A stretch of 64,000 nt of DNA from Candidatus Dormiibacterota bacterium (GTDB lineage: Bacteria; Chloroflexota; Dormibacteria; CF-121): positions 59,467 through 123,466 of the forward strand of contig DASTJZ010000075.1 of the NCBI GenBank assembly GCA_035716185.1. Reading direction: 5' to 3'. The notes beneath the pieces were generated by a model. The model saw nothing but the letters and a program-made list of their open reading frames with translations, ran no database searches and was not told where the DNA came from. Each line of letters starts with the position of its first letter. Within the stretch, counting starts at the first letter, position 1. The position numbers and the translations under genes were made by a program. Positions 7,814 to 61,833 of this stretch are shown here, piece after piece.

Positions 7814-8872
7814 ATGACTGAGGCGCCGGCGCCCCGGAAGCGGAGCCGCGCGCTCGGCTGCGCGCAATGGCTCGCGGTCATCCTCTTTCTGCTGCCGGCC
7901 GCCCTAGGGATCCCGGGTGTTCTGGCCTACAACTGGGTCGACCACCAACTCCATCAGCCGGCCAATCCCTCCAATTCCAAGGTCCGCTTTGTGGTGCCGC
8001 CCGGGGCAACCTTTCACGAGGTCGCCGATACGCTGCACCGGGCCGGCCTGATTGACTCCGTCACGGTTTTCGATCTCTACGCCCGCTACAAGCACCTCGA
8101 CCGGAATGTCCAGGCAGGGGCCTATGAACTGAGCCGCAACCTGACTATGGTCCAGATCCTCGATGCTCTACAGACCGCCATTCCGGAGGAGATTTTCGTC
8201 ACCGTTCCAGAGGGCTACACGATCAAGAAAACGGCAGCCCTCCTCGATAAGGGTGGCGTGATCAAGGGGAGTGACTATGTCGCTGCCGCCGTCGCCGGAC
8301 AGTTCAATTACGACTTCCTGAAAGACCTCCCGGCAGCCACCTCCCTGGAAGGGTTTCTCTTCCCCGATACCTATCTGGTCCCGCGCACCGGGACAGCGAA
8401 GCAATTGATCACGCTCCAGCTGGACAACTTCAACCGCCATTGGACGGACACCCGAAAGTCACAAGCCGCCCAGCGGCGGCTGAACGCCCTCCAGATCGTG
8501 ACGATTGCCTCGATGATCGAGCGGGAGGCTCGCTTCGATGATGACCGGCCGCTGGTAGCCAGCGTTATCTATAACCGGCTCCAGGACGGCTGGACGCTCG
8601 ACATCGATGCCACCGTCCTCTACGCCAAGGGCGTCTGGCAGTCTTCCGTGACCCTCGACGACCGCAAGATCAATTCGCCCTACAACACCTATTTACATAC
8701 CGGACTTCCGCCTGGACCGATTGCGAACCCTGGCATCAAGGCGATCGATGCCGCGCTCCAGCCCGCGCAAACGGGCTACTTCTTCTACCTCTCAGATCCT
8801 CAGGGACACAATCACTACGCCAAGACCAAAGAGGAGTTCGACCGCCTCCTCAAGCAGTACGGCCTCCAGTAG
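7814..8872 (+). CDS. mltG: Endolytic murein transglycosylase MltG (YceG family)
   Basis: N-terminal TM, then the YceG-like domain (...YNRLQDGWTLDIDATVLYA...NTYLHTGLPPGPIANPG). Confidence 0.9.
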   Translation: MTEAPAPRKRSRALGCAQWLAVILFLLPAALGIPGVLAYNWVDHQLHQPANPSNSKVRFVVPPGATFHEVADTLHRAGLIDSVTVFDLYARYKHLDRNVQAGAYELSRNLTMVQILDALQTAIPEEIFVTVPEGYTIKKTAALLDKGGVIKGSDYVAAAVAGQFNYDFLKDLPAATSLEGFLFPDTYLVPRTGTAKQLITLQLDNFNRHWTDTRKSQAAQRRLNALQIVTIASMIEREARFDDDRPLVASVIYNRLQDGWTLDIDATVLYAKGVWQSSVTLDDRKINSPYNTYLHTGLPPGPIANPGIKAIDAALQPAQTGYFFYLSDPQGHNHYAKTKEEFDRLLKQYGLQ

Positions 8873-8909
8873 CCCCTTCGGCCCGTCCCGCGCAGCTGAG
8901 GGTGGGCGG

Positions 8910-9731
8910 CTGCTCCTGCTCGGCGATGAGCCCGGGATCGAGCTGGCGGCGCAGCTCTATCAGGCCGGCTTGGCTGCGGCGGGCGTCGCGGCAACCTGCG
9001 AAATCCGCAGGCTGGCGGCTAACGACCTGGCCGCCGCCGTACAGAGCATGCGAGCAGATCCAACCGTTCTCGGGGCGGCGGTGACCATGCCGCACACGGT
9101 TCCGGTGGCTCGGCTGCTCGACGGCCTCGGTCCCGAGGCGCAGACCATCAAGGCGGTCAATACCGTCAGCCATCGATCGGGGGCACTGATCGGCTGGAAC
9201 ACCGATCGGCCCGCCTTTACCCTGGCCCTGGAGGAGGCCGGCTACTCGCCGAAGGGGCGATCGGCGTTGGTGCTGGGCGCCGGTGGAGCGGCCCGGGCCT
9301 GCGCGGATGCGCTGCGAGAATCCGCCGTAAAGATCTGGATTGCGAGCCAGGATCTCGACCAGGCGCGCGCCCTCTGCCGCGATCTGCAGATCGGCGACGG
9401 TGGGCCAGCCCCGATCGGCTCGCTGGCGCTGGTGAGCAAGAAGGTCGACCTCGTCGTGAATGCCACACCGGTCGGCAGCGACGGAGCGACCGTGATTTTC
9501 CCGGTTGACTGGATTGCGCCCAGCCAGTTTGTCTTCGACCTTATCTATTACCCGCCGGTGACCCCCCTGGTCCAGGGTGCCCGGGCCCGAGGCGCCCGCG
9601 CCATCAACGGTGTGAGCATGCTGCTCTTTGCCGGCCTCAATGCCATCGAACTCTGGACGGGGCAGCCGGCCGTCGAAGGCGCCATGCGAGCCGCGCTGGA
9701 GCGGGCCGTACTTGGCCGGATGACCTCGTGA
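8910..9731 (+). CDS. aroE: Shikimate 5-dehydrogenase (start uncertain; no ATG/GTG/TTG between the mltG stop and the conserved N-terminus)
   Basis: ...RLLLLGDEPGIELAAQLYQAGLAAAG... NTDRPAFTLALEEAG... LVLGAGGAARACADAL. The first in-frame candidate after the mltG stop is CTG 8910, preceded by GAGGGTGGG. Confidence 0.8.
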   Translation: MLLLGDEPGIELAAQLYQAGLAAAGVAATCEIRRLAANDLAAAVQSMRADPTVLGAAVTMPHTVPVARLLDGLGPEAQTIKAVNTVSHRSGALIGWNTDRPAFTLALEEAGYSPKGRSALVLGAGGAARACADALRESAVKIWIASQDLDQARALCRDLQIGDGGPAPIGSLALVSKKVDLVVNATPVGSDGATVIFPVDWIAPSQFVFDLIYYPPVTPLVQGARARGARAINGVSMLLFAGLNAIELWTGQPAVEGAMRAALERAVLGRMTS

Positions 9732-10906: not shown

Positions 10907-11467
10907 ATGGTTAACCCGCACGATTTCCGCAATGGCATGACCATCGAATGGGAAGGGGATCTCTGGATCGTGGTCGAGTTCCAGCAGGGTCAGAACGCCC
11001 GCGGCGATACCTTCTTTCGGACCAAGCTCAAGAACGTGAAGTCTGGGGCCATCATCGACCAGAAGTTCCGTGACAAGGACCGGTTCGCCCGCGCTCGGAT
11101 CGAGAAGGTCCCCATGCAGTACCTTTACAGCGACGGCGACCGTCATTTCTTCATGGACCTGCAGAACTACGACCAGATGCCGCTGAACGACGACCAGCTC
11201 GGCGACACGCTGAAGTACCTGAAAGAAAACACGTCGATCGACGTGCTCATGTACGACGGCCAGCCTCTCGGCGTGGAGCTGCCGACCACGGTGGATTTGA
11301 GGGTCACGCAAACGGCTCCCGGGTTTCGTGGCGATACCGCGGCCGGCGGCGGAAAACCCGCCACTACCGAAACCGGGCTCACCCTCAATGTGCCCTTTTT
11401 CGTCAACCAGGGCGACGTCGTGCGGGTCGACACCCGTAGCGGCGCCTACGTGGAGCGCGTAACGTGA
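10907..11467 (+). CDS. efp: Elongation factor P
   Basis: ATG 10907 MVNPHDFRNGMTIEWEGDLWIVVEFQQGQNARGDTFFRTKLKNVKSGAIIDQKFRD... Confidence 0.95.
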   Translation: MVNPHDFRNGMTIEWEGDLWIVVEFQQGQNARGDTFFRTKLKNVKSGAIIDQKFRDKDRFARARIEKVPMQYLYSDGDRHFFMDLQNYDQMPLNDDQLGDTLKYLKENTSIDVLMYDGQPLGVELPTTVDLRVTQTAPGFRGDTAAGGGKPATTETGLTLNVPFFVNQGDVVRVDTRSGAYVERVT

Positions 11468-11821: not shown

Positions 11822-12271
11822 ATGGGTCGGCGCCATCTGGCCCGCGAGCTCGCGCTTAAAGTCCTGTTCGAGCTCGAGAGCGAGGGGCGCGAGGATCTGG
11901 ATCGCGCGCTCGAATACCAGGCCGCCGAGGCCAACGCCGACGCCGAAACCATCGATTTCGCCCGAACGCTGATTCGCGGCGTGCTCGAGCACCGGCAGGA
12001 GATCGACGCCCGACTGGCCGAGGCATCCAGCAACTGGGACCTGGATCAGATGGCCAAGGTCGAGCGCACGCTCCTGCGCATCGCGACCTTTGAGCTTTCG
12101 TACCTGACCAGCGTGCCGCTGAAGGCGGCCATCAATGAGTCGATCGAGCTGGCAAAGACCTTCGGCGGGCCGGACTCGGGTAAGTTCGTCAACGGCATCC
12201 TGGGCCGGATCGCCGCCGACCTGCAAAACCGCCCGCCGGCCGCCGATCCGGCCACGGCGAAGGAAGCCTGA
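11822..12271 (+). CDS. nusB: Transcription antitermination factor NusB
   Basis: MGRRHLARELALKVLFELESEG... Confidence 0.9.
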   Translation: MGRRHLARELALKVLFELESEGREDLDRALEYQAAEANADAETIDFARTLIRGVLEHRQEIDARLAEASSNWDLDQMAKVERTLLRIATFELSYLTSVPLKAAINESIELAKTFGGPDSGKFVNGILGRIAADLQNRPPAADPATAKEA

Positions 12272-12273
12272 GT

Positions 12274-12492
12274 TTGGACGAGGACCTGGCGCAGATGGAC
12301 TACGAAACCGCGCTGGCTGAGCTGGAGCGCACGGTGCAGCAGCTTGGACGTGAGCAAGAAGACCTGGCGGAGTCGGTGCGCGCCTTCGAGCGCGGCTTGG
12401 CGCTGGCGCGACGCTGCACCAGGCTGCTGGACGACGCCGAGAAACGGCTTAACGCGCTGGCTCCCGCCGCCGAACGGCCGGCCAGCCCATGA
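12274..12492 (+). CDS. xseB: Exodeoxyribonuclease VII small subunit
   Basis: ...DYETALAELERTVQQLGREQEDLAESVRAFERGLALARRCTRLLDDAEKRL. No xseA is adjacent. Confidence 0.8.
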   Translation: MDEDLAQMDYETALAELERTVQQLGREQEDLAESVRAFERGLALARRCTRLLDDAEKRLNALAPAAERPASP

Positions 12493-14519: not shown

Positions 14520-15016
14520 CGGGCGCCCTCCACCGGGTCGGGCAGTTCTGGCGGCATGCCTCGGCCCGGGTCGGCGTGGAGGAGGCGGCCAATGCCGATC
14601 GGATCCTGGGACCCGCACTGGCGCCGCTGTTCCATGGATTGCCGATCAATGACCAGCGCCACGGCCTCGACGTACTCGAAACCATTACCCGCCTCGATGA
14701 CCATCCAGACCGGCTCCTCCTCCAGGCCGCGCTGCTCCATGACGTGGGGAAGGCCGGCGCCCGATTCTCGGTCGTCGATCGCAGCCTCACCGTTTTCCTT
14801 CGGGCGGTCTCGCCGCGCTTGCTTGACCTGGTCCTTCGTGCCCGCCCTGGGATGGCTCGCCGCTACCGGCTCTATGCCGACCATGCCCGGATCGGCGCCG
14901 AGCGGGTACAAGCGGCCGGGGCGAGCCAGCTGGGGGCGATCATCGCCGAGCACCACGACCCCGAACCGGCATCCGAGGTGACCCGTCACCTGCAGCGCGC
15001 GGATCGGCGAAATTGA
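14516..15016 (+). CDS. HD-domain metal-dependent phosphohydrolase
   Basis: ...INDQRHGLDVLETITRL...LLHDVGK... Confidence 0.65.
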   Translation: MTGALHRVGQFWRHASARVGVEEAANADRILGPALAPLFHGLPINDQRHGLDVLETITRLDDHPDRLLLQAALLHDVGKAGARFSVVDRSLTVFLRAVSPRLLDLVLRARPGMARRYRLYADHARIGAERVQAAGASQLGAIIAEHHDPEPASEVTRHLQRADRRN

Positions 15017-16251: not shown

Positions 16252-16273
<22 letters not shown>

Positions 16274-16959
16274 CTCAGGCGGGCGTTGCTGCCCGCCGCA
16301 AAGCCGACCAGCTGGTCGCCTCCGGCAAGGTGCTCGTCAATGGCCGTGCTGCCATCCCGGGGCAACAGGTGACGCCGGGCGTCGACCAGGTGACGGTCGA
16401 CGGGCGGCCGATCGAGCCAGTCAGCGAGCGGACCTATCTGATGCTGAACAAGCCGGTCGGCGTGCTCAGCAGCGTGGGTGATCCGCGTGGCCGGCCGACC
16501 ATCACGGACCAGCTTGGTGCCGGCCGGCGGGTCTTTCCGGTGGGCCGCCTAGATCTCGACAGCCGCGGACTGGTGTTGCTCACCGACGACGGCGAACTCG
16601 CGATGCGGCTGATGCATCCGCGCTACGGCGTAGAGAAGGAATATATCGTCCTGGTGTCGGGACGACCCAATTCGCAAGCATTTCAGCGCCTCGCCGGCGG
16701 CATGACGATAGGAAGCGAGTCGTTCCAGCCCGCTGATATCCGGATCATCGACCAAGGTCCGAATGAGACGCGGCTCGCGATGGTGCTCCGCGAGGGCCGC
16801 AAGCGCGAGGTCCGCCGGTTGTGGCAGGCCCTCGGCCACCAGGTGATCGACCTGCAACGCGTTCGCATCGATGGGCTCCGGCTGGGTTCCCTCGAGGAAG
16901 GAGGGGTTCGGCCACTGACGGCGGAAGAAGTGGCCAGCCTGAAAGCCGCGGTATCCTGA
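16252..16959 (+). CDS. rluB: S4-domain pseudouridine synthase (RluB/RsuA family); probable ATC start
   Basis: The S4 motif (M)RLNHFLAQAGVAARRKADQLVASGKVLVNGRAA starts at ATC 16252. The first canonical start (GTG 16330) lies inside the S4 domain. PSU core ...RLDLDSRGLVLLTDDGEL... Confidence 0.8.
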
Positions 16960-19836: not shown

Positions 19837-22577
19837 TGGATCGTACCTTCGTCGCGCTCGACCTGGAGACTACCGGGCTGGCTCCCCGGATCGATCGTAT
19901 GATCGAGGTGGGCGCCGTTCGCTTCCGCGGCGACGAGGTCCTTGCCACCTTCCAGTCACTGGTTCGCCCCGAGGTCGGGATTCCGAGAGCCGTCCAGGAA
20001 CTGACGGGTATTCGCGACGCCGACGTGGCCGCCGCCCCGCAGCCCGAAGAGGTCCTCACCCAGCTGATCGATTTCGTGGGCGAAAGCGCCGTCGTGGCGC
20101 ATAGCGGCAACTTCGATCTCTCCTTCCTCGTCGATGGTGAGGCGGAGCCGCGCTACGAGCTGTTCGACACCCTGGATCTCGCTCGCATCATGCTCCCGAT
20201 GGCGCCGAGCCACAGCCTGCCGCACCTCTCGCGGCAGTTGGGGCTGACGCACCCGCACCCGCATCGGGCCCTCTCCGATGCGGATGCGGCCCGACAGCTC
20301 TTTCGCCATCTACGGCAGGTTGCCCGCGGTTTTCCGAGCGAGCTGATCGACCGGATGCTCGAGGTGAGCGCTGAGTGGCCGCACCCGCTACGCCACTTTC
20401 TCGAAGAGGCTCACGCCGCCGGTCGCGACGCCGTCGAGACCGCGTCGCGCGCTGCGCCTCAACCCGTCGACGTCAAAGGCTCGAGCAAGCCGTCGACGGA
20501 CCCGCAGGCGATCCGCGCCCTGCTCGGCCCAGACGGTCCGATGGCGGCCCGACTCGACGACTACGAGCTTCGCGAATCGCAGCTGCAGATGACGCTCGCG
20601 ATTGCGCAGCTCTATTCGCGCGGCGGCCGGCTACTGGTCGAGGCCGGACCGGGAACGGGCAAGTCGCTGGCCTACCTGGTGCCTGCCGTCCACCATGCGG
20701 TCGCCAGCGGCGAGCGGGTGGTGGTGGCGACCAACACCATCACCCTCCAGGAGCAACTCTTCTGGAAAGACATCCCCTTCTTGCGGAGCTGGCTCCCCTT
20801 TGACTTCAAGGCGTCGCTGCTGAAGGGGCGGGCGAATTACGTCAGCCTGCGGCGCTGGAATCGCTATCTCAATGCACCCAGCCGGCGGGCAGACGGCGGG
20901 TGGTTTCACGACGAGCTGAAGTTCAAGCTGCGCATGCTGGTCTGGTTGGCGCAGACCCGCCACGGCGATCGGTCGGAGATCAAGCTCAACGGCCTGGATG
21001 AGCTCTTCTGGTTGCGGGCGGCGTCGACTCCCGATGACTGCCTCGCCGCGCACTGCGACAACTTCAAAACCCAGCGGTGCTTCTACTGGAACGGTCGCCG
21101 CGCCGCCCAGGACGCCGACGTGATCGTGACCAATCACGCCCTCCTGCTCACCGATGCGCTCGCCGGCGGGACAGTCCTGCCCGCGCATGAGCACCTGATC
21201 GTCGATGAAGCCCACCAGCTGGAGGAGACGGCCGTCGAGGCGTTGACGCTGCGGGTGGGGGAGACGGAGTTGCTGGAGAGCATCGACGGCATCCTCACCT
21301 GGTTTCGGGCGGCGATGGGCCAGCCTGGCGAGCCAGTCAAGAAAGCCGCGGCCGATTTCCGGGCCGCCGTCAGCGAGTTCTTCCATGAGGCGCGCAAGAT
21401 CATCGGCGAGCGCCAGCCCCTAGTTCCGCTCCGGGCATCGCGGGATGAACCGGTCGTGCTCGACGAGACGAACCGAAAGTCACCCGATGTCGTTGGTCTG
21501 GCAGCGCAAGCGAGCGCGCTCGGTGATGGGAGCGCCGCCTTCCTCCGTGCGCTGGACGATGCCGGCTCCCAATTGCCCCTCGAGAGCAATCCGTACGCGG
21601 AGCGCGAGTTCGATCTCTTCGTCGCCCAACTGAAGAGCCGCATCGACCTCGTGATGCAGGCGCTCCTCCAGCCGCGTGCCGACCGCCTGTACTGGCTGGG
21701 TTCGGAACGCCGCTCCGGCCGGCCCGTTCTCCACGCCGCCCCAACCGCCGCCGGTCGCGAACTGCAGGCCCGGGCGTTCACCGACAAAGAAACCGTCGTC
21801 TTCACCTCAGCCACGTTGGCGGTGGCCGACTCCTTTACCTACTTCAAGCGCGGTGTCGGGCTCGAGGCGCTCAGCGCCCACGAGATGGTGCTCGCGTCGC
21901 CCTTCGACTATCTCTCGCAGGCCTTGCTCTGCTTGCCGACCGACCTCCGCCAGCTCGATGATCCGGCCTTCGTCGACCAGGTGGCCACGGTCGTGGGTGA
22001 AATCGGCGAGGCGATCGATGGGCGAACGCTCGTGCTCTTCACCTCGCATCAGCAATTGCGCGACGTCGCCGAGCGTTTGCGGATTCGAACCGCGCACAGT
22101 CAGCTGGCCGTCCTTGCGCAGAACCTCGATGGAACGCGTCGCCAGCTGCTGGCCGAGTTCCAGGACAATCCGCGGAGCATCCTGCTGGGAAGCAGCAGCT
22201 TCTGGGAAGGGATCGATGTCCCCGGCGATGCCCTGTCCTGCGTCATCATCGTCCGGCTGCCCTTTAAGGTTCCGACCGATCCACTGCAGCTGGCCCGCAG
22301 CGCCACCCTGGCCGATCCATTCGGACAGCTCGCGCTCCCGGAGGCCGTGCTGCGCCTCAAACAGGGTTTCGGCCGGTTGATCCGGCGCCAGAGCGACCGG
22401 GGCGCCGTCCTGCTGATGGATCACCGAATCGCTAACCGGACCTATGGCGGCGCGTTCCTGGATGCCCTGCCGCGAGCGGCGGTGCATGTCGGGGAAAGCG
22501 CGGAGATGGCGCCGACCATCGCCAGGTGGTTGCGGCGTCCGGGCAGCGTGGAATTGCGCCAGGCGGTGGAAGCGTGA
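19836..22577 (+). CDS. dinG: DinG-family ATP-dependent helicase with an N-terminal DnaQ-like 3'-5' exonuclease domain
   Basis: MDRTFVALDLETTGLAPRIDRMIEVGAVRF (exonuclease motif I) ...GPGTGKSLAYLVPA... DEAHQLEE...; ~914 aa. This fusion is typical of Firmicutes DinG. Confidence 0.9.
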   Translation: MDRTFVALDLETTGLAPRIDRMIEVGAVRFRGDEVLATFQSLVRPEVGIPRAVQELTGIRDADVAAAPQPEEVLTQLIDFVGESAVVAHSGNFDLSFLVDGEAEPRYELFDTLDLARIMLPMAPSHSLPHLSRQLGLTHPHPHRALSDADAARQLFRHLRQVARGFPSELIDRMLEVSAEWPHPLRHFLEEAHAAGRDAVETASRAAPQPVDVKGSSKPSTDPQAIRALLGPDGPMAARLDDYELRESQLQMTLAIAQLYSRGGRLLVEAGPGTGKSLAYLVPAVHHAVASGERVVVATNTITLQEQLFWKDIPFLRSWLPFDFKASLLKGRANYVSLRRWNRYLNAPSRRADGGWFHDELKFKLRMLVWLAQTRHGDRSEIKLNGLDELFWLRAASTPDDCLAAHCDNFKTQRCFYWNGRRAAQDADVIVTNHALLLTDALAGGTVLPAHEHLIVDEAHQLEETAVEALTLRVGETELLESIDGILTWFRAAMGQPGEPVKKAAADFRAAVSEFFHEARKIIGERQPLVPLRASRDEPVVLDETNRKSPDVVGLAAQASALGDGSAAFLRALDDAGSQLPLESNPYAEREFDLFVAQLKSRIDLVMQALLQPRADRLYWLGSERRSGRPVLHAAPTAAGRELQARAFTDKETVVFTSATLAVADSFTYFKRGVGLEALSAHEMVLASPFDYLSQALLCLPTDLRQLDDPAFVDQVATVVGEIGEAIDGRTLVLFTSHQQLRDVAERLRIRTAHSQLAVLAQNLDGTRRQLLAEFQDNPRSILLGSSSFWEGIDVPGDALSCVIIVRLPFKVPTDPLQLARSATLADPFGQLALPEAVLRLKQGFGRLIRRQSDRGAVLLMDHRIANRTYGGAFLDALPRAAVHVGESAEMAPTIARWLRRPGSVELRQAVEA

Positions 22578-24974: not shown

Positions 24975-26508
24975 GTTCTACGTCACCACCGCGATCGTCT
25001 ATCCGAACGCCGCGCCGCACCTTGGCTTCGTCTACGAGCTGGTGGGCGCGGACGCGCTGGCGCGTTACCACCGCCTGGCTGGCGACGAAACCTTCTTCCT
25101 GACCGGCACGGACGAGCACTCCCAGAACGTCCGGCGCAAGGCCGAAGAGGAGGGCGTCCCGACCGAGGTCTTCACTGCCCGCATGGCGCAGCTGTACCGC
25201 GATGTCGAAGCGAAATTCAGCATCAGTTACGACCGCTTCATCCGGACGGAGGACCCCGATCACTACCAGGGCGTCCAGGCGTTCATCAGCAAAATCCAGG
25301 CGCGCGGCGACATCTATAAGGGCGCCTACGAAGGCTGGTACTGCGTCTCCTGTGAAGCCTTCAAAACGGAGAGCGAGCTCAAAGACGGCTACTGCCTGAT
25401 CCACCCCAATTTGAAAGCGCAGTGGCTGACCGAGGAAAACTACTTCTTCGCTCTCTCGAAGTACCAGAAGCGGCTGCAGCAGCTGATCGACAAGCATCCC
25501 GATTTCATCCAGCCCGAGACTCGCCGCCACGAGGTACTGGGCTGGCTCAAAGAGGGGCTGCGGGATTTCAGCATCTCGAGGTCCACGATCAAGTGGGGGA
25601 TTCCCTTCCCGGGCGACGAGAAGCATGTCGTCTACGTCTGGGGCGATGCGCTGGCCAACTACATCACCGGCGTCGGCTATGGGACCGACGAGGCGATGTT
25701 CAAGCGCTGGTGGCCGGCCGACCTGCATGTCATCGGCAAGGACATCACGCGCTTCCACTGCCTCTACTGGCCCGCGATGCTGATGTCGGCCGGGCTTGCG
25801 GTCCCGGAGCGCGTCTACGCCCACGGTTTCCTCACAATTCGCGGCGAGCGGATGAGTAAGAGCGCGGGCAACTACATCGACCCGTTAGAGGCCGCTGACC
25901 GCTTCGGAGCGGATGCGGTGCGCTATCTGCTGCTGCGCGAGCTGCCCTTCGACCGTGACGGCGACGTCAGCTGGGAGACGCTGGTCGATCGCTACAATGC
26001 CGACCTGGCCAACGACCTGGGGAATTTCGTCTACCGGACTCTGTCGATGCTCCAGCGATACTTCGATGGCAAGGTGCCGGCGCCAGACGGCGACGTCACG
26101 CCGCTGGACATGAAGCTGCAGACCGCCTTCGAGACCGCTGTCCGTGGCATGGACCGGCATGTCAGGGCCCTCGACTTCACGGCGGCCCTGACCCAGGTCT
26201 GGGAGGCGATCAATCGCGGCAACAAGTACATCGAGGAGAGCGCCCCCTGGGTGCTGGCCAAACAGTCAGACCAGCGAAAGCGCCTGCAGACCGTCATGTA
26301 CAACCTGGTCGAGGCGATCCGGCTGACGACGTATCTGATCGCGCCGTTTCTGCCGGAAACCGCCGCGCGGATCGCCAGCCAGGTGAAGATCGATTTGAAA
26401 GCGCCGTGGGCGACGGCGCGGGAGTGGGGAAAGCTGGCGCCGCGCACGCAGACGGCCCTGGGCGAGGTACTGTTCCCTCGCATCGAGAAGCCGGAGCCGG
26501 TCGCCTGA
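24967..26508 (+). CDS. metG: Methionyl-tRNA synthetase (short form)
   Basis: MNKFYVTTAIVYPNAAPHLGFVYE...; KMSKS motif (GERMSKSAGNYI). Confidence 0.95.
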   Translation: MNKFYVTTAIVYPNAAPHLGFVYELVGADALARYHRLAGDETFFLTGTDEHSQNVRRKAEEEGVPTEVFTARMAQLYRDVEAKFSISYDRFIRTEDPDHYQGVQAFISKIQARGDIYKGAYEGWYCVSCEAFKTESELKDGYCLIHPNLKAQWLTEENYFFALSKYQKRLQQLIDKHPDFIQPETRRHEVLGWLKEGLRDFSISRSTIKWGIPFPGDEKHVVYVWGDALANYITGVGYGTDEAMFKRWWPADLHVIGKDITRFHCLYWPAMLMSAGLAVPERVYAHGFLTIRGERMSKSAGNYIDPLEAADRFGADAVRYLLLRELPFDRDGDVSWETLVDRYNADLANDLGNFVYRTLSMLQRYFDGKVPAPDGDVTPLDMKLQTAFETAVRGMDRHVRALDFTAALTQVWEAINRGNKYIEESAPWVLAKQSDQRKRLQTVMYNLVEAIRLTTYLIAPFLPETAARIASQVKIDLKAPWATAREWGKLAPRTQTALGEVLFPRIEKPEPVA

Positions 26509-27284
26509 TCGATTCGCACGCGCATCTCCTGCACCTGCGCGAGCCGCTGACGGCGGAGCAGGCGCTCGAAGAGGCGCGAGCGGTGGGGGTCGAAACTGTG
26601 ATCAATATCGGCGACGACGCTTCGGATAATCGGCCGGGCATCGAGTTGACCGAGCGCATCACCGGGTTGCGGACGACGATCGGCCGACATCCGCACTCGG
26701 CGGACGAACCGATCACCGCAGCAGAGCGCCGCGAGCTCCGCCGCCTGGCCGCCCATCCCCACGTAGTCGCGCTGGGGGAGATCGGACTCGACTACCACAT
26801 CACGGAATACCACAGGGTGCCGGCTAAGGCGCAGGCGCAGGTCTTTCGCGAGATGCTGGGCCTGGCGCAGGAGGTGGCCAAGCCGGTTGTCCTCCACACC
26901 CGCGACGCCTTCCCTGATTTGCTTGCCATCCTGGATGAATTCCCAGGGCTGCCAGGCGTGTTTCATTGCTTCAGCGGAAATTCCGCGTTCGCCGCTGAGG
27001 CGTTGGCACGTGGCTACTACATCTCATTTGCGGGGACGGTCACCTACCCGACGGCCCATGGCGTGATTGGGGCGGCCAGTATCATCCCGCTCGACCACAT
27101 GCTGGTCGAAACCGATGCGCCGTTCCTCCCGCCGCAGAGCCGGCGTGGCCAGCCGAATGCGCCGCGATACATCGTCGAGACCGTCGAGCGGATCGCCGGG
27201 CTGCGCCAAACAACGGCTGCTGCGATTGGCGGCGCAACCAGCCACAATGCCATCGAGCTCTTTCGGTTGAACCACGCCGGCTAA
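26505..27284 (+). CDS. tatD: TatD-family metal-dependent DNase/hydrolase (start uncertain: CTG 26505 or ATC 26508, overlapping the metG TGA)
   Basis: (L)IDSHAHLLHL...; the junction reads gccTGATCgat. The nearest canonical in-frame start is ~100 nt inside metG. Confidence 0.8.
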   Translation: MIDSHAHLLHLREPLTAEQALEEARAVGVETVINIGDDASDNRPGIELTERITGLRTTIGRHPHSADEPITAAERRELRRLAAHPHVVALGEIGLDYHITEYHRVPAKAQAQVFREMLGLAQEVAKPVVLHTRDAFPDLLAILDEFPGLPGVFHCFSGNSAFAAEALARGYYISFAGTVTYPTAHGVIGAASIIPLDHMLVETDAPFLPPQSRRGQPNAPRYIVETVERIAGLRQTTAAAIGGATSHNAIELFRLNHAG

Positions 27285-27315
27285 ACGACGATCGCTCGAT
27301 CTCGCTGACCCCGCA

Positions 27316-28128
27316 ATCCTGCGGGGCGTCGCCCGTCGCTTCGGGGTTCGGTTTCAGCGCCGCTGGGGACAGAACTTCATCGCCGATCGTAACCAGCTGA
27401 ACCGGATTGTCGAAGCGTTGGAGTTGACGCCGGGAGACAGCGTCGTAGAGGTCGGCCCGGGATTGGGCACCCTGACCGTAGAACTCGCCAGCCGGGTACG
27501 CGCGGTGGTGGGCATCGAGATCGATCCAGCCAGCGTCAGGGCGTTGGCGCTGACTCTTCGCGATCGGACCAATGTGCGGATCATCGAGGGCGACGTGCTG
27601 CGCACCGACGTGGAGGACCTCCTGCCGCCGCCGTACCGGGTCGCCGGCAATATCCCATACAACCTGACCGGCGCCCTCCTGACCCACCTGCTCGAGCGGC
27701 CTCACCCCCCGGCACGTATCGACCTGCTCGTCCAACAGGAAGTCGCTGATCGCATCGTGGCCCCGCCCGGTGGTTGGAGCCTTGCCACGCTCGGTGTTCG
27801 TGTCTACGGGCGGCCGGAGCGTGTGCTGCGAGTCCCACGCACGGCGTTTGTGCCGCAGCCGCAGGTCGACTCGGCATTGGTGCGCATCGTGCCCGAGGCC
27901 GAGCCAGCTCTGCCGCGAGAGGTCTTGCCAAGTTTCTTCAAGTTCGTCACACCGTTTTTCCAGGCTCGTCGCAAGCAGCTGCCCTTCGTGCTGGCACGAA
28001 GCCTGGGTGTCGATGGGGCGGAGGCTCGTCGCCGTCTCGCCGTTATAGGCATCGATCCGAGGCGTCGCGCCGAGACGCTGACGCTCGAGGAGTGGAGGCG
28101 ATTTTTCGAACGTGAGCACAGGAATTGA
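27316..28128 (+). CDS. rsmA: 16S rRNA (adenine1518/1519-N6)-dimethyltransferase RsmA/KsgA (start uncertain: ATC 27316 or CTG 27319)
   Basis: The conserved ...RFQRRWGQNFIADRNQLNRIVEALELTPGDSVVEVGPGLGTLT lies upstream of the first canonical start (TTG 27418). No ATG/GTG/TTG between the tatD stop and this motif. Confidence 0.8.
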   Translation: MLRGVARRFGVRFQRRWGQNFIADRNQLNRIVEALELTPGDSVVEVGPGLGTLTVELASRVRAVVGIEIDPASVRALALTLRDRTNVRIIEGDVLRTDVEDLLPPPYRVAGNIPYNLTGALLTHLLERPHPPARIDLLVQQEVADRIVAPPGGWSLATLGVRVYGRPERVLRVPRTAFVPQPQVDSALVRIVPEAEPALPREVLPSFFKFVTPFFQARRKQLPFVLARSLGVDGAEARRRLAVIGIDPRRRAETLTLEEWRRFFEREHRN

Positions 28129-34433: not shown

Positions 34434-34462
34434 GATAGCCTCGGGGCTATCTTTTTTGTTTT
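34434..34462 (+). terminator. Intrinsic terminator/attenuator in the infC leader (L20-leader-type attenuation)
   Basis: GATAGCCtcggGGCTATC followed by TTTTTTGTTTT, immediately upstream of SD AAGGAGG (34465-71). Confidence 0.7.
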
Positions 34463-34500
34463 CGAAGGAGGCTTGATCCACGGCATTTAGGGAACTTCGG

Positions 34501-35070
34501 ATTAACGATCAGATTCGCGCTTCGGAAGTCCGCGTTATCGACGATCGCAACGAGCAGCTAGGGGTCATGGCGACCGACCGGGCGAAGGCGCTGGCGGTCG
34601 AGCGTGAGATGGACCTGGTTGAGGTGGCCCCTCAGGCGCAGCCGCCGGTGGCGCGGATCATGGACTATGGCAAGTTCAAGTTTGAGAGCCTGAAGAAAGA
34701 CAAAGATGGACGCCGCAAACACAACGTCATCAAGGTCAAAGAGATGAAGCTTCGTCCAAAAATCGGCGAGCACGATTTCCAGACGAAGTTCCATGCCGTC
34801 AAGTCGTTCCTCGAAGAGGGCGACAAGGTGAAGCTGACCATCATGTTCCGCGGGCGCGAGATGGTCCACCAGGACATCGGCAAGAACCTGCTCGATCGCA
34901 TGGCGCGCGAGCTCAAGACCATCAGCACAGTAGAGCGCCTGCCCCTGCTGGAAGGAAAGAACATGATCATGATCCTGGCGCCGGCACAAGCGCCGGGCCA
35001 GCCTCCGCCTCCTGCCCCGACGCCGCCGCAGGCTCGACCCGAGCGCGTGAAGGGGGCGACCCATGCCTAA
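34501..35070 (+). CDS. infC: Translation initiation factor IF-3, probable non-AUG (ATT) start, with a Pro/Ala-rich C-terminal tail
   Basis: In-frame ...INDQIRASEVRVIDDRNEQLGVMATD... lies upstream of the annotated ATG 34567. An in-frame stop at 34474-76 leaves ATT 34501 as the likely start (the known IF3 autoregulatory AUU). C-term ...APGQPPPPAPTPPQARPERVKGATHA. Confidence 0.8.
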   Translation: MNDQIRASEVRVIDDRNEQLGVMATDRAKALAVEREMDLVEVAPQAQPPVARIMDYGKFKFESLKKDKDGRRKHNVIKVKEMKLRPKIGEHDFQTKFHAVKSFLEEGDKVKLTIMFRGREMVHQDIGKNLLDRMARELKTISTVERLPLLEGKNMIMILAPAQAPGQPPPPAPTPPQARPERVKGATHA

Positions 35071-39776: not shown

Positions 39777-40400
39777 TTGCCGAGCAATAACCTTACGGCG
39801 CCGCGGTTGTCGCGATCGTTCTTTGCGCGCAAACCCGTCACCCTGGCGCGTGATCTGCTCGGGCGGATTCTCTTCTACCGCACCCCGCAAGGGCTGATTG
39901 CCGGCCGAATCGTGGAGACCGAGGCCTACACCGGGGAGGCCGATGCGGCATCGCACGCCTTCCGCGGTCGTACCGCCCGGAACGCCGTCATGTTCGGCCC
40001 GGCCGGGCACGCTTACGTCTATTTCAGCTACGGCGTGCACTACTGCCTCAATGTGGTCGCTGACCAGCCCGGCAAGGCCGGCGCGGTGCTACTGCGTGCC
40101 CTCGAGCCGCGGTCGGGGATCGCGATCATCCGAGCCCGGGGTGACCAGGGACCCGAACACCGCCTGTTGAGTGGCCCCGGAAAGATCGGGCGCGCCTTCG
40201 GGCTCACCCTCGCCGACAACGGCCGCGACCTCACGCGTGGACCGCTGGGAATCGCCGCCGGCACCCCAGTGCCCGATCGTGAGGTCGCCATATCGACGCG
40301 AATCGGGATCTCGCGCGCCGTGGATTTCCCCTACCGCTTTGCCGTGGTGGGAAGCCGCTCGGTGTCGGGTCGGGTGTCGACCGTTAGCTCGGGAGCGTGA
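39777..40400 (+). CDS. DNA-3-methyladenine glycosylase (MPG/AAG family)
   Basis: TTG start. ...FFARKPVTLARDLLGRILFYRT...IVETEAYTGEADAASHAFRGRTARNAVMFGPAGHAYVYFSYGVHYCLNVV... Confidence 0.85.
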   Translation: MPSNNLTAPRLSRSFFARKPVTLARDLLGRILFYRTPQGLIAGRIVETEAYTGEADAASHAFRGRTARNAVMFGPAGHAYVYFSYGVHYCLNVVADQPGKAGAVLLRALEPRSGIAIIRARGDQGPEHRLLSGPGKIGRAFGLTLADNGRDLTRGPLGIAAGTPVPDREVAISTRIGISRAVDFPYRFAVVGSRSVSGRVSTVSSGA

Positions 40401-42885: not shown

Positions 42886-42921
42886 CGCGTCTATAACGGT
42901 TGAGTTCGGTAAAAAGCACAG

Positions 42922-44163
42922 TTGATCGAGCGAAGCGCCGATATACTCGCGTCTAGAACGCGTGACGGAATGATGAAAAGACAACAAAACCCTGATGACG
43001 AGGCCTGGCAGGCCGTCACCAGCGGCGCGGTTGACATCGTCGACCGCGAACACCTCCGCCAGCGCATCGTCCGCGGAGATCGGTTGCGCGTCAAGCTCGG
43101 GCTCGATCCGACCCGGCCCGACATCCACCTCGGTCACACGGTCCAGCTGCGCACGCTTCGCCGTTATCAGGAGCATGGCCACCAGGTTGTCCTGATCATT
43201 GGCGACTGGACCGCCCGCATCGGAGACCCCTCGGGTCAGAACGTGACCCGGCCGCAGCTGACACACGAGGAGGTCGATGCGGCGGCCAAAACCTATCTCG
43301 ATCAAGCCTGGAAGATCCTCGAGGAGAGCGCGACCGAGGTCCGCTTTCAGTCGGAATGGTTCGACCGCATGCGGCTCGATGACGTGGTTGGCCTGATGAG
43401 CAAGTACACGGTCGCGCGCATGCTGGCTCGTGAAGATTTCGCAAAGCGCGTCAAGGAAGGCCGCCCCGTCAGCCTGCACGAACTGCTCTATCCGTTGCTG
43501 CAGGCCTATGACTCCGTCGCCATCAAGTCGGATCTCGAACTGGGCGGCACCGATCAGACCTTCAACCTGCTGGTCGGACGTGACCTGCAGGAGGCATTCG
43601 GCCAGCCGCCGCAGGACATTCAGACCATGCCGCTGCTCGAGGGTCTGGACGGTGTCCAGAAGATGAGCAAGAGCCTCGACAACTACATCGGAATCGACGA
43701 GTCGCCGGACGTCATGTATCGCAAGGCGATGGCAGTGCCGGACAATCTCATTCTTCGCTACCTCGAACTGGCAACGGACGCGACCCCGGCCGAGATCGCC
43801 GCTGAACGGCGTGCCCTACAGGATGGCGCAAATCCGCGCGACGTCAAGCAGCGACTGGCGGAGCGCATCGTCCAGCAGTTCCACCGCAATGTGGCGTCGG
43901 ACGCCTATCGAGGATCGGGAGGTCGCATTCTGGCGGCCGAACCCGAGGCGGTGACGATTCGTGCTGGCGAGCGCACCGGTGCAGAACTGTTTCTCGAATC
44001 CGGCCTGGTCAGCAGTAAGGGTGAAGCGCGCCGCCTCGCCGTCCAGAAGGGGCTCAGCATCAACGATCGCATCGTTGAATCAATCGACGCGGCCGTCAAT
44101 CCGCAGGATGGTTGGCTGTTACGCCGCGGCAATCATCGCCTGGTGCGGCTGAAGGTGAGCTAA
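42922..44163 (+). CDS. tyrS: Tyrosyl-tRNA synthetase (true start may be ATG ~42970)
   Basis: HIGH motif (PTRPDIHLGH), KMSKS motif (KMSKSLDNYI), C-terminal S4-like domain. Confidence 0.9.
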   Translation: MIERSADILASRTRDGMMKRQQNPDDEAWQAVTSGAVDIVDREHLRQRIVRGDRLRVKLGLDPTRPDIHLGHTVQLRTLRRYQEHGHQVVLIIGDWTARIGDPSGQNVTRPQLTHEEVDAAAKTYLDQAWKILEESATEVRFQSEWFDRMRLDDVVGLMSKYTVARMLAREDFAKRVKEGRPVSLHELLYPLLQAYDSVAIKSDLELGGTDQTFNLLVGRDLQEAFGQPPQDIQTMPLLEGLDGVQKMSKSLDNYIGIDESPDVMYRKAMAVPDNLILRYLELATDATPAEIAAERRALQDGANPRDVKQRLAERIVQQFHRNVASDAYRGSGGRILAAEPEAVTIRAGERTGAELFLESGLVSSKGEARRLAVQKGLSINDRIVESIDAAVNPQDGWLLRRGNHRLVRLKVS

Positions 44164-47092: not shown

Positions 47093-48188
47093 CTGGGCAT
47101 CGTCGGATTCACGTTCCTGGCCGCGGGGTTGTCGCTTTATCTGTTCAGCGCGGCCCTGCCGCTCTACCTCTATCGCGATCGGGGCTACTCGCTGGGGTCT
47201 GTGGGTGTCCTGGTAGGCCTGGCATCGGTCGTCCAGGTCGTTGCCACGCTGGCAGTCGGTCCATTCGTCGACCGGCGCGGCGCGCGTCTGGCCATTCGCC
47301 TGGGCTCCGGCTGTTACGTATTGGCGGCGGTGCTATTTCTGACGTCCGTTTGGCTTCCGGCGATTGCCCTGGCTCGCGTCCTCCAAGGGGTGGGCGTTGC
47401 GTTGGTTATTCCAGCGGTGTTCAGCATCGTGCCGATGCTGGTCTCGAAAGGCTTCCAGGGCGCCGCGCTAGGGGCGGTTGGCGCGTTCAACAATGTCTCG
47501 CTGGCGGCAGGACCGCCTCTCGGACTTTTGCTTCTGGGCCTGAGTCCAACCATCCTGTTTCTCACGGCGCTGACCGCGGCCGGCCTGGCGATCACGGTCA
47601 GTTTGTTCCTGAACGTCGGTCGTGCAACGTCGACGCCAGGCCAGCTGTTGAAGTACCGAGGCGCCTGGACTCCGCTCTACCTCATTACCTTCTTATGCGT
47701 GGTCTACTGGGGTGTGGTCACGGCGTTCCTGCCGATCGAGGTGCCGCGGAGCCAAATTCCCAACGTCGGTTGGTTCTTCGTGGCCGATGCCGTCGCCGTC
47801 CTGGTCGCGCGCATTCCCGCGGGGTTCCTCGCCGACCGTTTTGGGTCCCGCTGGCTGCTCGTCATCGGGGCGCTGGTCACCGGCCTTGGCATCGCCCTTC
47901 TCCTGGCGCCCGCATCGTTCACCAGCCTGTTACTGGCCGGTACGACGACCGGCGTCAGCGCCGCCCTGGTGTTACCACCGATCCTGCTCGAGCTCACCAA
48001 GCGCAGCGACGAGACGGACCGTGGGACGGCGATGGCTCTCCAGAACACGAGTTTTGCGGCGGCGGTCGGCGTCGGCAGCCTCGGTGCCGCCGGCCTGGTT
48101 CAGCACCTGGGCTTCAACGCCACTCTCGTGATGAGTCTCGCTTCCTGCCTCGCCGCGATTCCCATCGCGCTGGGTTTCCTTAGGCCTG

Positions 48189-54415: not shown

Positions 54416-54652
54416 CTGCGCACCTGCGTGGGGTGCCGGCAGGCCAAGCCGCGCACCCAACTGCACCGCCTGGGAATCGCGGACGGGACGATTGCCGTCA
54501 ACCCTCGCCGGCTGTCTGGACGCAGCGCCTATCTCTGTCGCGATGAGCGCTGCTGGGCGAATGCCGAGAAGCGGCGGGCGGTCGACCGCGCGCTGCAGGT
54601 GCATCTGACGGCGCAAGATTGGACAAGGCTTCGTCAGGGAATACTCAGCTGA
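54416..54652 (+). CDS. ylxR: YlxR/RnpM-family (DUF448) RNA-binding protein; probable CTG start
   Basis: (L)RTCVGCRQAKPRTQLHRLGIADGTIAVNPRRLSGRSAYLCRDERCWANAEKRRAVDRALQV. The conserved RTCVGCR lies upstream of the first canonical start (GTG 54428); CTG at 54416. Confidence 0.75.
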   Translation: MRTCVGCRQAKPRTQLHRLGIADGTIAVNPRRLSGRSAYLCRDERCWANAEKRRAVDRALQVHLTAQDWTRLRQGILS

Positions 54653-54710
54653 GGGTTCGGCGGCATTTTCGCCGCCACGCTATCATTGCCAGTTGAATTC
54701 CGGAGGTTAG

Positions 54711-56718
54711 ATCAGCCATAGCAACAACGACTCGCGGTATTAAGGTTCAGCAGCTCGCCCGTGACCTCGGCGTCGAGGCCCGGGATATCCTCGATTTCCT
54801 GCGCCCGCAGCGGCATGCACCACGCCACGCCATGGCGGTGCTAACGCCGGAGCAGGAGGCGTCCGTGCGCACCCAATTCGCGCCGGCAGCCGGCCAACCG
54901 GCGGAGACCAGGCGTGGTGCCACGGAAGGCAAGGTGGAGCTGCCACCCTCACTCTCCGTCAAGGAGCTGGCTGAGTACCTGGACGTCAAGACCGTCGACA
55001 TCATCAAAGAACTGATGAAGAACGGCGTGATGGCCAACATCAACCAGCAGATCGACTTCGATACCGCCTACCTGGTCGCGGGCAGCTTTGGCGTCCAGGC
55101 GAGCCCGATGTCGATGGATTCCGCGATCGCCGAAGAGGTCGGTGAAGGCGAAGCCACCCAGGTCAAGATGACCACCCGGTCCGAGCTCTTCAGCACCGAT
55201 GGCGAGTCCGCCGAGAATCTGAAGCCACGCCCCCCGGTGGTGACCGTCATGGGCCACGTCGACCATGGCAAGACGTCGCTGCTCGATGCCATTCGGCAGA
55301 CGAAAGTTGCCGCCGGTGAAGCGGGCGGGATCACGCAGAGTATCGGCGCCTACGAAGTCGAAGAGCGGGGTCGTCGCATCGTCTTCCTCGACACCCCCGG
55401 CCATGAGGCGTTCACCGCCATGCGTGCCCGCGGCGCGCAGGTGACCGACGTCGCGGTCCTGGTGGTGGCCGCCGATGACGGCGTCATGCCGCAAACCATC
55501 GAGGCGATTTCGCACGCGAAGGCGGCGCAGGTTCCGATCGTGGTCGCGATCAACAAGATCGACAAGGAGGGCGCCAATCCGGATCGCGTCAAGCAGGGCT
55601 TGAGCGAGCAAGGACTGGTCCCCGAAGAGTGGGGCGGACAGACGGTCATGGTGCCGGTGTCTGCCAAGCAGAAGACCGGGCTCTCCGACTTGCTGGAGAT
55701 GATCCTGCTGGTCGCCGACCTCCAGGATCTCAAGGCCAACCCCAACAAGCTGGCTGCCGGCACGATCATCGACGCGCACCTGGAGAAGGGACGCGGACCG
55801 GTAGCGACCGTGCTCGTCCAGAGCGGCACCCTGCGGATCGGCGACAACCTCGTGGTGGGTCACATCTTCGGTAAGGTGCGGGCCCTGCTGGACGATCGCG
55901 GACGCAAGATGCGGGACGCCGGCCCTGCCACGCCGGCGGTAGTCACCGGGCTTCCGGATGTTCCGACCGCGGGCGATATCTTCCAGGTCGTTTCCAGCGA
56001 GAAGGTCGCCAGGACCATTGCCGGCCAGCGAGCCGAGCAGCATCGAGTCGCCACCCTGGCCCAGACCCGCCGGGTAACCCTCGCCGACCTTTCGGCTGCG
56101 GTGGGGAAGGGCACCGTCAAGGACCTGAACCTGGTCCTGAAGGCGGACAGCAATGGCTCGGTCGAGGCGCTCAAGGGATCGCTGCTGAAGATCCAGGACC
56201 CGCAGGTCCAGATCAAGGTCGTCTTCGAAGGCGTCGGTCCCGTGACCGAGTCGGACATTCTGCTGGCCGCCGTCTCGAACGCGCTTGTGATTGCCTTCAA
56301 CGTCAAAACCGACACGCTGGCCCAGAAAGCCGCCGAGCGAGAGAAGGTCGACATCCGCAGTTACGACGTCGTCTACAACGTCACCAACGACATCGAGCGC
56401 GCCATCAAGGGGCTCTACGAACCGACCTTTGTCCAGGTCTGGGAAGGCCGTGCTGAAGTACTGCAGCCGATCAAGATCCCGAAGGTTGGTGTGATCGCCG
56501 GCTCGCGGGTGCAGGACGGCAAGATCACCGTCAACTCGACGGCGAAAGTCCTGCGTGACAACAAGCCGCTGCACGAAGGCCAGATCGTCGCCCTGAAGCG
56601 CTTCAAAGACGATGTCCGGGAAGTCACCGTCGGCCTCGAGTGCGGTATCCGCGTCGAGGGCTACCAGGACTTCCAGCCCGGCGACATCATCGAGTCGTAC
56701 CAGGTCAAGCAGGCCTAA
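54711..56718 (+). CDS. infB: Translation initiation factor IF-2; the N-terminal IF2_N domain is interrupted by an apparent +1 frameshift at the C4 run 54778-54781. The continuous ORF begins at ATG 54832.
   Basis: Frame 0 from ATC 54711 (5 nt after GGAGG) reads [23 protein letters not shown]. Frame +1 continues [12 protein letters not shown]...MAVLTPEQ... [41 protein letters not shown] (second IF2_N), then G domain ...[20 protein letters not shown]...DTPGHEAF...; ends 56718. Confidence 0.85.
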
Positions 56719-56721
56719 GCC

Positions 56722-61740: not shown

Positions 61741-61833
61741 GCTTACCGGGCAAGTTCGACTAGCCAACGGCTCGCCGGGCAAGCGACTAGCAAGGAGGTA
61801 TACCGACTGGCATCAGCGATCAAAGCGGGCGTG

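Follow-up and report, generated by a model that had tools for sequence, protein, structure and literature searches.

Conserved genes without canonical start codons in a 64-kb region of a Candidatus Dormiibacterota genome

Start regions in the window

The DNA analysed here, 64,000 nucleotides of contig DASTJZ010000075.1 (the window), belongs to the metagenome-assembled genome of a soil bacterium from an uncultured phylum, Candidatus Dormibacteraeota (Dormiibacterota, AD3), whose current NCBI name is Candidatus Dormiibacterota. It has a G+C content of 63-66%, and nearly every one of its approximately 65 genes lies on the + strand in tight operons. Seven of these genes have no usable canonical start codon (ATG, GTG or TTG): rluB, rsmA, infC, ylxR, infB, rpsO and a gene for an F420-type luciferase-like (LLM) oxidoreductase. 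All seven encode a family-typical conserved N-terminus 5' of the first canonical in-frame codon, and five (rsmA, infC, ylxR, infB and the LLM gene) have no ATG, GTG or TTG anywhere from the in-frame upstream stop to this N-terminus. Three further genes, an aroE-like gene (CTG 8910 or 8916), tatD (CTG 26505) and a YegS-like lipid kinase gene (CTG 60805), probably also start at non-canonical codons; in these three, a canonical codon is present between the in-frame upstream stop and the N-terminus.

A first-pass annotation, made from the letters of the window, had claimed that unusually many genes here start at codons other than AUG, GUG or UUG. This core claim holds, with 7 firm and up to 11 possible cases among the approximately 65 genes (11-17%). 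Its ten listed sites fared unevenly: the codons proposed for rluB, the LLM gene, ylxR, tatD, the YegS-like kinase and aroE were retained, those proposed for infB, infC and rsmA are not the best candidates, the evidence for a transporter of the MFS family is weak, and rpsO was missed. The accompanying statement that the frames offer only CTG, ATC or ATT as far back as the upstream stop does not hold for aroE, tatD and the YegS-like kinase, where canonical codons lie upstream. The near-cognate set found comprises CUG, AUC, AUA and very probably ACG, of which AUA and ACG had not been foreseen.

For all ten claimed sites, frames were taken from the upstream stop and their canonical and near-cognate codons listed, and the stop-to-stop translations were aligned to NCBIfam, Pfam and PDB sequences. 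At each site, the codons of relatives were threaded onto the protein alignments and variation was scored by codon position. Sets of relatives were assembled around nusA (L081, L083-L088, L175), from aroE to rluB (L089, L090, L171-L174) and around rsmA, the last comprising close relatives (72-81% identity; L091-L113) and a distant clade (42-47% identity; most of L114-L170). Homologues of NusA, RluB and AroE at 70-100% identity were found in metagenome assemblies that carry the label Candidatus Dormibacteraeota or "Chloroflexi bacterium". Seven proteins of the window have exact matches in the NCBI annotation of the source genome, four of them under HET98480xx accessions. Unrelated bacteria were represented by loci of approximately 50% identity in other phyla, obtained from a contig search with an IF2 query that was dominated by the universal GTPase motif. 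The analysis covers one 64-kb region and its syntenic counterparts and draws on comparative sequence evidence. The start regions are collected in Table 1, where SD denotes Shine-Dalgarno sequence.

Table 1. Start regions of the genes discussed and, where it bears on the start, the NCBI annotation of the source genome.
Feature	Position	Strand	Start codon and surroundings	NCBI annotation
aroE-like gene, start	8898..8918	+	purine-rich SD-like stretch GAGGGTGGG at 8898-8906; CTG 8910 and CTG 8916 in a Leu tract	
rluB, start codon	16252..16254	+	ATC, beginning 19 nt before the scpB stop (16271-16273)	RluB, 209 aa, from GTG 16330
tatD, start	26493..26507	+	GGAG 26493-26496, 8-nt spacer, CTG 26505; CTGA overlap with the metG stop TGA 26506-26508	TatD, 286 aa, from GTG 26424 (inside metG)
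rsmA (ksgA), 5' end	27274..27318	+	frame opens at 27271; candidate ACG 27274; tatD stop TAA 27282-27284; ATC 27316	
infC, start region	34464..34503	+	SD GAAGGAG 34464-34470; in-frame TGA 34474-34476; candidate ACG 34480; ATT 34501	IF-3, from ATT 34501
MFS transporter, 5' end	47093..47131	+	CTG 47093; ATC 47099; canonical TTG 47129	
ylxR (rnpM), start codon	54416..54418	+	CTG, beginning 5 nt after the nusA stop TGA 54409-54411	YlxR, 74 aa, from GTG 54428
infB, start	54702..54720	+	SD GGAGG 54702-54706, 11-nt spacer, ATA 54718	
LLM (F420-type luciferase-like) oxidoreductase, start codon	56722..56724	+	CTG, 4 nt after the infB stop TAA 56716-56718, same frame	LLM, from CTG 56722
YegS-like lipid kinase, start codon	60805..60807	+	CTG; CTGA overlap with the ribF stop TGA 60806-60808	DAGK, 348 aa, from ATG 60694
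rpsO (S15), start	61792..61809	+	SD AAGGAGGT 61792-61799, 7-nt spacer, CTG 61807	S15, 78 aa, from ATG 61834

Genes behind a Shine-Dalgarno sequence and genes at operon junctions

The infB frame opens at 54697 and reaches its first canonical codon only at ATG 54832. ATC 54711, the start proposed in the first pass, is out of frame and opens a reading frame of only 10 codons; the in-frame start is ATA 54718. This column holds ATC or ATA in all five clades (5/5), with a GGAG-type SD 5-11 nt upstream, and in relative L084 an in-frame TAA lies two codons before the non-canonical codon. ATA 54718 also marks a boundary in the pattern of substitution: upstream of it all three codon positions vary, and over the next 38 codons, to ATG 54832, variation is almost confined to third positions. 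The Pfam IF2_N profile gave no match at the extreme N-terminus of IF2, to which it is blind, so that ATA 54718 is supported by comparison among relatives and not by a domain hit. Judged from the alignments, the start codon of IF2 is AUA here and AUC in most relatives.

The gap between ylxR and infB (54659-54699) contains a GC hairpin, GGCGGC-ATTTTC-GCCGCC, in place of which relatives carry a different complementary stem. It is followed, just 5' of the infB SD and AUA, by a conserved 19-nt motif, TATCATTGCCAGTTGAATT, found in four of the five clades. Hairpin and motif together may constitute an infB leader or regulatory element.

At rpsO, position 1 of the TIGR00952 profile is the residue after CTG 61807, and the first canonical codons, GTG 61831 and ATG 61834, fall 8-9 codons inside the S15 profile and have no conservation in relatives. 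The CTG, with an AAGGAGG SD 7-10 nt upstream, is kept in four clades (five loci), and L084 has an in-frame TAA four codons 5' of it. NCBI calls the 87-aa CTG form of S15 in several relatives, as opposed to 78 aa in the source genome.

The infC gene has no canonical start, as had been claimed, but the ATT at 34501 is a less likely one than ACG 34480: it lies 30 nt from the SD, compared with 9 nt for the ACG. That ACG is preceded at two codons by a TGA and followed by the residue at position 1 of TIGR00168, and distant relatives have ATA or ATC at exactly this codon, with GAGG 9 nt before it. From ACG to ATT the residues are kept (AFRELR compared with xFKELR; AF(R/K)ELR), with synonymous differences between clades. 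These comparisons point to ACG 34480 as the most likely start.

Approximately 6 nt 5' of the infC SD, on the + strand at 34434-34457, stands a hairpin followed by a T-run (GATAGCC-TCGG-GGCTATC-TTTTTT) that is kept in the window's clade. Because the preceding gene is on the other strand, it looks like a leader or attenuator and not like the terminator of an upstream gene. It has no Rfam match at the gathering threshold, and Rfam and tRNA scans of the 64-kb window returned no leader and no initiator tRNA. When IF3 was inspected by eye, RFRGRE was seen to read MFRGRE here, with no clear fidelity signal.

The aroE-like gene likewise follows a spacer. CTG 8910, the start first proposed, is present with the purine-rich stretch upstream, although TTG 8721 and ATG 8748 lie further upstream in the same frame, inside mltG. 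Between the mltG stop (8870-8872) and TTG 8970 there is no canonical start, and homology to NCBIfam and Pfam families begins 5' of that TTG. All relatives carry a purine-rich SD-like stretch. L172 and L173/L174 have TTG at the column of 8916, from which their genes are called, and L172 also has TTG at the column of 8910; L171, the closest relative at 93% identity, offers nothing but four CTG codons there, and its gene is called in a truncated form of 239 aa. Other relatives have a GTG or ATG start 12 codons upstream. The encoded protein lacks the usual N-terminal substrate motif (8922-8960), its HSxSP region reading EPGIELAAQLY, and its score is below every NCBIfam cut-off for shikimate dehydrogenase (163 against 252 bits); by these sequence features it may not be a standard shikimate dehydrogenase.

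Among the genes that begin at operon junctions, rluB overlaps the end of scpB. Position 1 of both the RsuA profile and the S4 domain falls on ATC 16252, the codon identified in the first pass, which is invariant in four clades. GTG 16330, the first canonical codon, lies 26 codons within the S4 domain and is not conserved, and codons 16282-16308, beyond the scpB stop, vary at third positions only. All of the best 120 RluB homologues in the protein database (120/120) are called from an internal Val or Met or later.

The frame of the LLM gene opens at 56719, right after the infB stop, and a start at its first ATG, 56797, would delete strand beta-1, which speaks for the CTG first proposed at 56722. 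By alignment to NCBIfam, Pfam and PDB sequences, the N-terminus falls in the first approximately nine codons after the infB stop, and P0400, a close homologue, begins MTKREHRPLKVGFQLP, its ordinary Met lying a few residues further upstream. This gene (56719-57630) stands between infB and rbfA in this genome only; in relatives the site is occupied by a homoserine dehydrogenase gene or is empty.

For ylxR, the CTG proposed at 54416 proved to be the sole near-cognate codon in the frame, which opens at 54386, and position 1 of the Pfam YlxR profile is the next residue. Starting at GTG 54428 would lose the RTC of the RTCVGCR motif and with it the first Cys. L175, L081, L084 and L088 have canonical starts (ATG, TTG or GTG) 8-22 codons upstream, and the column of the L175 ATG reads ACG in L083 and AGT in the window. 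In L083 this ACG, at approximately 11154-11156 and aligned to the L175 ATG at 1055, is a probable start. The gene is not called at all in several relatives.

At rsmA, the first pass was correct that no usable canonical start exists, but its ATC 27316 is not the start, as coding-type conservation reaches 10 codons further upstream. Across 20 distinct relatives, codons 27286-27315 show mainly third-position variation; this stretch is therefore translated. Between 27271 and 27316 there is no ATG, GTG, TTG, CTG or ATH (ATA, ATC or ATT), and no canonical codon appears until TTG 27418, beyond the GQNF motif. The single near-cognate codon within 27271-27286 is ACG 27274; it lies 8 nt before the tatD stop and is the candidate start by elimination. 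In the distant clade, the homologous IDPAD motif is directly preceded by GTG, TTG or ATG.

The starts of tatD and of the YegS-like kinase each overlap the upstream stop as CTGA. In tatD, the proposed CTG 26505 is real and coincides with position 1 of TIGR00010, but in-frame GTG codons exist upstream at 26406 and 26424. CTG-ATC is kept in 17 of 17 sequences, and nine informative distant-clade sequences have ATH (6/9), TTG (2/9) or GTG (1/9) at or beside the homologous N-terminal position. The kinase CTG, aligned to position 3 of DAGK_cat, is likewise real, but ATG 60694 lies upstream in frame; this ATG has no counterpart among relatives, and in L081 and L083 in-frame stops exclude an upstream canonical start. 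An overlap of this kind joins ribF to the kinase gene in every clade, as CTGA in L084 and L088 and as TAACG in L081. The TAACG of L081 (approximately 16610-16615) gives its lipid kinase a probable ACG start overlapping the ribF stop.

Evidence for the MFS transporter is weak and comes from a single relative. The Pfam MFS_1 match begins 7 codons 5' of TTG 47129, and L081, the sole relative, has ATG five codons 5' of the TTG column and an ATC aligned to 47099.

Two neighbouring genes show related arrangements. The scpA gene starts with TTG in the window (15013-15016, a TTGA overlap with the upstream stop) and with CTG in L172, where it is called truncated, constituting another canonical-to-CTG switch. 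In xseB, CTG 12268 overlaps the nusB stop (CTGA; 12268-12276) and a canonical TTG follows two codons on; either may be the start, and the 72-aa product of two relatives is consistent with TTG. Elsewhere in the window, ARAGORN reports a 91-nt tRNA-Ala(GGC) at 19848-19938, inside the 5' end of a dinG-like gene, that has no Rfam match and is probably a false positive. The open reading frame of a PBP1A-type protein (40384-43815, - strand) is open for 1,143 codons and overlaps that of tyrS (42913-44163, + strand). Since the PBPs of relatives measure approximately 800-840 aa, its real start is probably near 42,880.

Controls and alternative explanations

Viewed across genes, the first position of the family profile coincides with the proposed codon or the one immediately after it in rluB, tatD, ylxR, infC and rpsO, and synonymous-type change dominates 5' of the first canonical codon in infB (38 codons, five clades), rsmA (10 codons, 20 sequences) and rluB (16282-16308). 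As controls, 20 other window genes were compared with NCBIfam profiles: position 1 coincided with the canonical start in 14, and the remaining six had no match. The lengths of further window genes match the gene calls in relatives, and in unrelated bacteria the start is canonical in 24 of 24 rpsO and 33 of 33 ylxR genes. Non-canonical starts in the window exceed chance. Enrichment of translation genes among the affected genes was considered and dropped, the whole window being rich in such genes.

Switches between canonical and near-cognate codons appear at homologous columns in aroE and scpA (TTG/CTG), infC (ATH/ACG), ylxR (ATG/ACG) and tatD (GTG/TTG/ATH). The alignments indicate that the state is old and maintained, with starts switching between GTG, TTG or ATG and CTG, ATH or ACG and with the N-terminal protein under purifying selection. 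The suggestion in the first-pass annotation that the lineage tolerates near-cognate starts is supported, relatives sharing most of them (infB in five clades, rpsO in four clades, tatD in 17/17, RluB in 120 homologues). Its remark that most cases sit at operon-internal junctions agrees with the six sites found less than 20 nt from an upstream stop. Its expectation that automated annotation would mis-set the starts is likewise confirmed: several of these proteins are shortened or lengthened in the NCBI annotation, which gives non-canonical starts to IF-3 and the LLM protein only.

We put the probability at roughly three in four that these are real genes in which initiator tRNA would read near-cognate codons, namely CUG, AUC/AUA and probably ACG, as translation starts. 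What is seen directly is the lack of canonical starts, the conservation, the codon-position pattern and the geometry of SD sequences and stops. Other explanations can be given for these features, and the same comparisons bear on each of them.

The true N-termini could lie at the downstream canonical codons, with the upstream similarity spurious or due to non-coding conservation. Gene callers and part of the NCBI annotation do use these codons (RluB of 209 aa, YlxR of 74 aa, S15 of 78 aa), and the MFS TTG 47129 lies near the ATG of its only relative. Orthologue alignment, the check put forward with the original claim, gave the opposite picture: the upstream stretches are of coding type, matching family profiles from position 1 and varying at third positions only, whereas GTG 16330 and ATG 61834 are not conserved in relatives. 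Truncation to these codons would moreover remove half of the S4 domain, the GQNF motif, the first YlxR Cys and strand beta-1 of the LLM barrel. We consider this explanation very improbable.

Equally improbable is that the affected genes have no initiation of their own and are expressed by readthrough, as an IF2-LLM fusion in one frame, or by frameshifting at the TatD-RsmA, NusA-YlxR and RibF-kinase junctions. The LLM gene does share the infB frame and begins right after its TAA, the coding constraint of rsmA begins 1-2 codons from the tatD stop, and several junctions are without an SD. No slippery sequence was found, however, at the junctions in alignments inspected by eye, and the frames and spacings of the same gene pairs differ among relatives, some of which have an ordinary ATG, GTG or TTG at or near the same place (rsmA in the distant clade, ylxR in L175, the LLM homologue P0400). 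Fusion would also leave infB, infC, rpsO and aroE unexplained, with their spacers and SD sequences.

C-to-U editing of RNA, turning ACG into AUG and CUG into UUG, occurs in plant organelles. Most of the unusual codons here (ACG, CTG) are one C-for-T change away from a canonical codon, and editing, or else an extra initiator tRNA or altered decoding, could account for them; the AUC and AUA starts of infB and rluB, on the other hand, are not repairable by C-to-U change, no editing factor or unusual tRNA was seen within the 64-kb window, and we know of no such mRNA editing described in bacteria. This explanation appears slightly less probable still than the preceding two. Least probable of all is destruction of the start codons by sequencing or assembly error or by pseudogenisation, for although the source is a metagenome-assembled genome and the AGT of ylxR, set against the ATG of its closest relative L175, may be a recent loss, the same codons recur in independent assemblies from different samples and pipelines (infB in five clades, tatD in 17 sequences, rluB in 120 protein clusters), which rules out sequencing error, and the reading frames are intact and under purifying selection, with ylxR of the window as one possible exception.

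Several observations weigh against initiation at near-cognate codons. Such codons are weak in E. coli, which makes them odd starts for the highly expressed rpsO and infB. CTG 54416 of ylxR is not conserved (the codon is CTT in L083, and close relatives use an upstream ATG), and the gene may be weakly expressed or in decay here. The ACG of rsmA is assigned only by elimination, and it is conserved largely under constraint from the overlapping tatD frame. For tatD and aroE, initiation could still take place at an in-frame canonical codon inside the preceding gene (for tatD, GTG 26424 in metG), and ATG 60694 of the YegS-like kinase is still usable in the window. More generally, the conclusions come from alignments of one syntenic region, and the rate of non-canonical starts refers to these 64 kb and their counterparts and not to the genome as a whole.

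Probable initiation at near-cognate codons

Two arrangements can be distinguished among the proposed starts. Where an intergenic spacer precedes the gene (infB, infC, rpsO, aroE), a strong SD stands 3-11 nt upstream of the start and would place the 30S subunit on the weak codon. Operon-internal starts (tatD, the kinase, ylxR, LLM, rsmA, rluB) overlap the upstream stop or lie less than 20 nt from it, the distances for those without a CTGA overlap being 4 nt (LLM) and 5 nt (ylxR) after the stop and 8 nt (rsmA) and 19 nt (rluB) before it, and are mostly without an SD; here, the terminating ribosome would restart at the neighbouring near-cognate codon. The window contains approximately 14 ATGA, GTGA or TTGA overlaps, of which CTGA would be a fourth variant. 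In such a scheme fMet-tRNA would initiate at these codons, restart coupling would be used, and the lineage would have relaxed or re-tuned its start discrimination, for example through IF3.

Termination-reinitiation at overlaps such as ATGA and TAATG is similar in that the starts of tatD and the kinase overlap a stop as NTGA (TAACG in one relative). It differs in that the restart codon here is CUG, ACG or AUC as opposed to AUG, GUG or UUG. The infC gene of E. coli has a rare AUU start and is autoregulated. Like it, infC of the window and of all examined relatives lacks a canonical start and has a good SD, with ATA or ATC in distant relatives; unlike it, the window's clade has ACG at the homologous codon, and ACG is outside the usual list of bacterial starts.

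Non-canonical starts are generally regarded as rare curiosities. Among annotated starts in well-annotated genomes, ATG accounts for 81.8%, GTG for 13.8% and TTG for 4.35%, which together make up essentially all of them (10.1101/063800). Relative to AUG, initiation in E. coli reaches approximately 1-2% at AUH and CUG and 0.1-1% at ACG, near-cognates spanning 0.01-3% overall (Hecht et al., 10.1101/063800). The codons that initiate with methionine in that work include the same set, AUA, AUC, AUU, CUG and ACG. They are almost never natural starts in E. coli, in contrast to the several switches seen here within a handful of genes. Elsewhere in prokaryotes, switches to CUG or AUU occur at approximately 1e-5 to 1e-4 per start codon (PMC5622118).

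Another parallel is Deinococcus deserti, in which an ATC start of dnaA and a CTG start of rpsL were proven by N-terminal proteomics (Baudet et al., PMC2830850), with Deide_03051 (CTG) and infC (ATA) bringing the total to four genes in the whole genome and an AUA start of infC proposed for Deinococcus-Thermus (PMC2830850). As in the window, conserved housekeeping genes, including a ribosomal protein gene, have ATC or CTG starts across the lineage and are mis-annotated. The cases differ in number and in kind of evidence: four genes per genome with proteomic proof in D. deserti, compared with 7-11 genes within 64 kb here, among them infB, rpsO and probable ACG starts, on comparative evidence.

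Non-canonical starts as such are known, and the NCBI pipeline already assigns some of them here. No literature was found that combines Dormibacter* or Dormiibacter* with start codon or initiation codon. The starts described here go beyond the descriptions found in their density, in affecting infB and rpsO, in probably including ACG and in having switched repeatedly during evolution. It is conceivable, though we hold it only tentatively, that Dormibacterota have re-tuned start selection such that CUG, AUC/AUA and even ACG serve as ordinary starts for at least 10% of genes genome-wide.

If the rate seen here extends to the phylum, its gene calls and reference proteomes would contain systematic errors at 5' ends, with conserved N-termini cut or genes omitted altogether, distorting protein families, structure predictions and metaproteomic searches. 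If the probable ACG starts are true, they would be a novelty among natural start codons of bacteria. If initiation at these codons is true of infB, infC and rpsO, the production of central components of initiation would hinge on initiation fidelity and thereby on IF3 activity. Should the rate hold for the phylum, with 10-15% of such starts and IF2, IF3 and S15 among them, these widespread soil bacteria would offer a natural system for relaxed or regulatory initiation fidelity.

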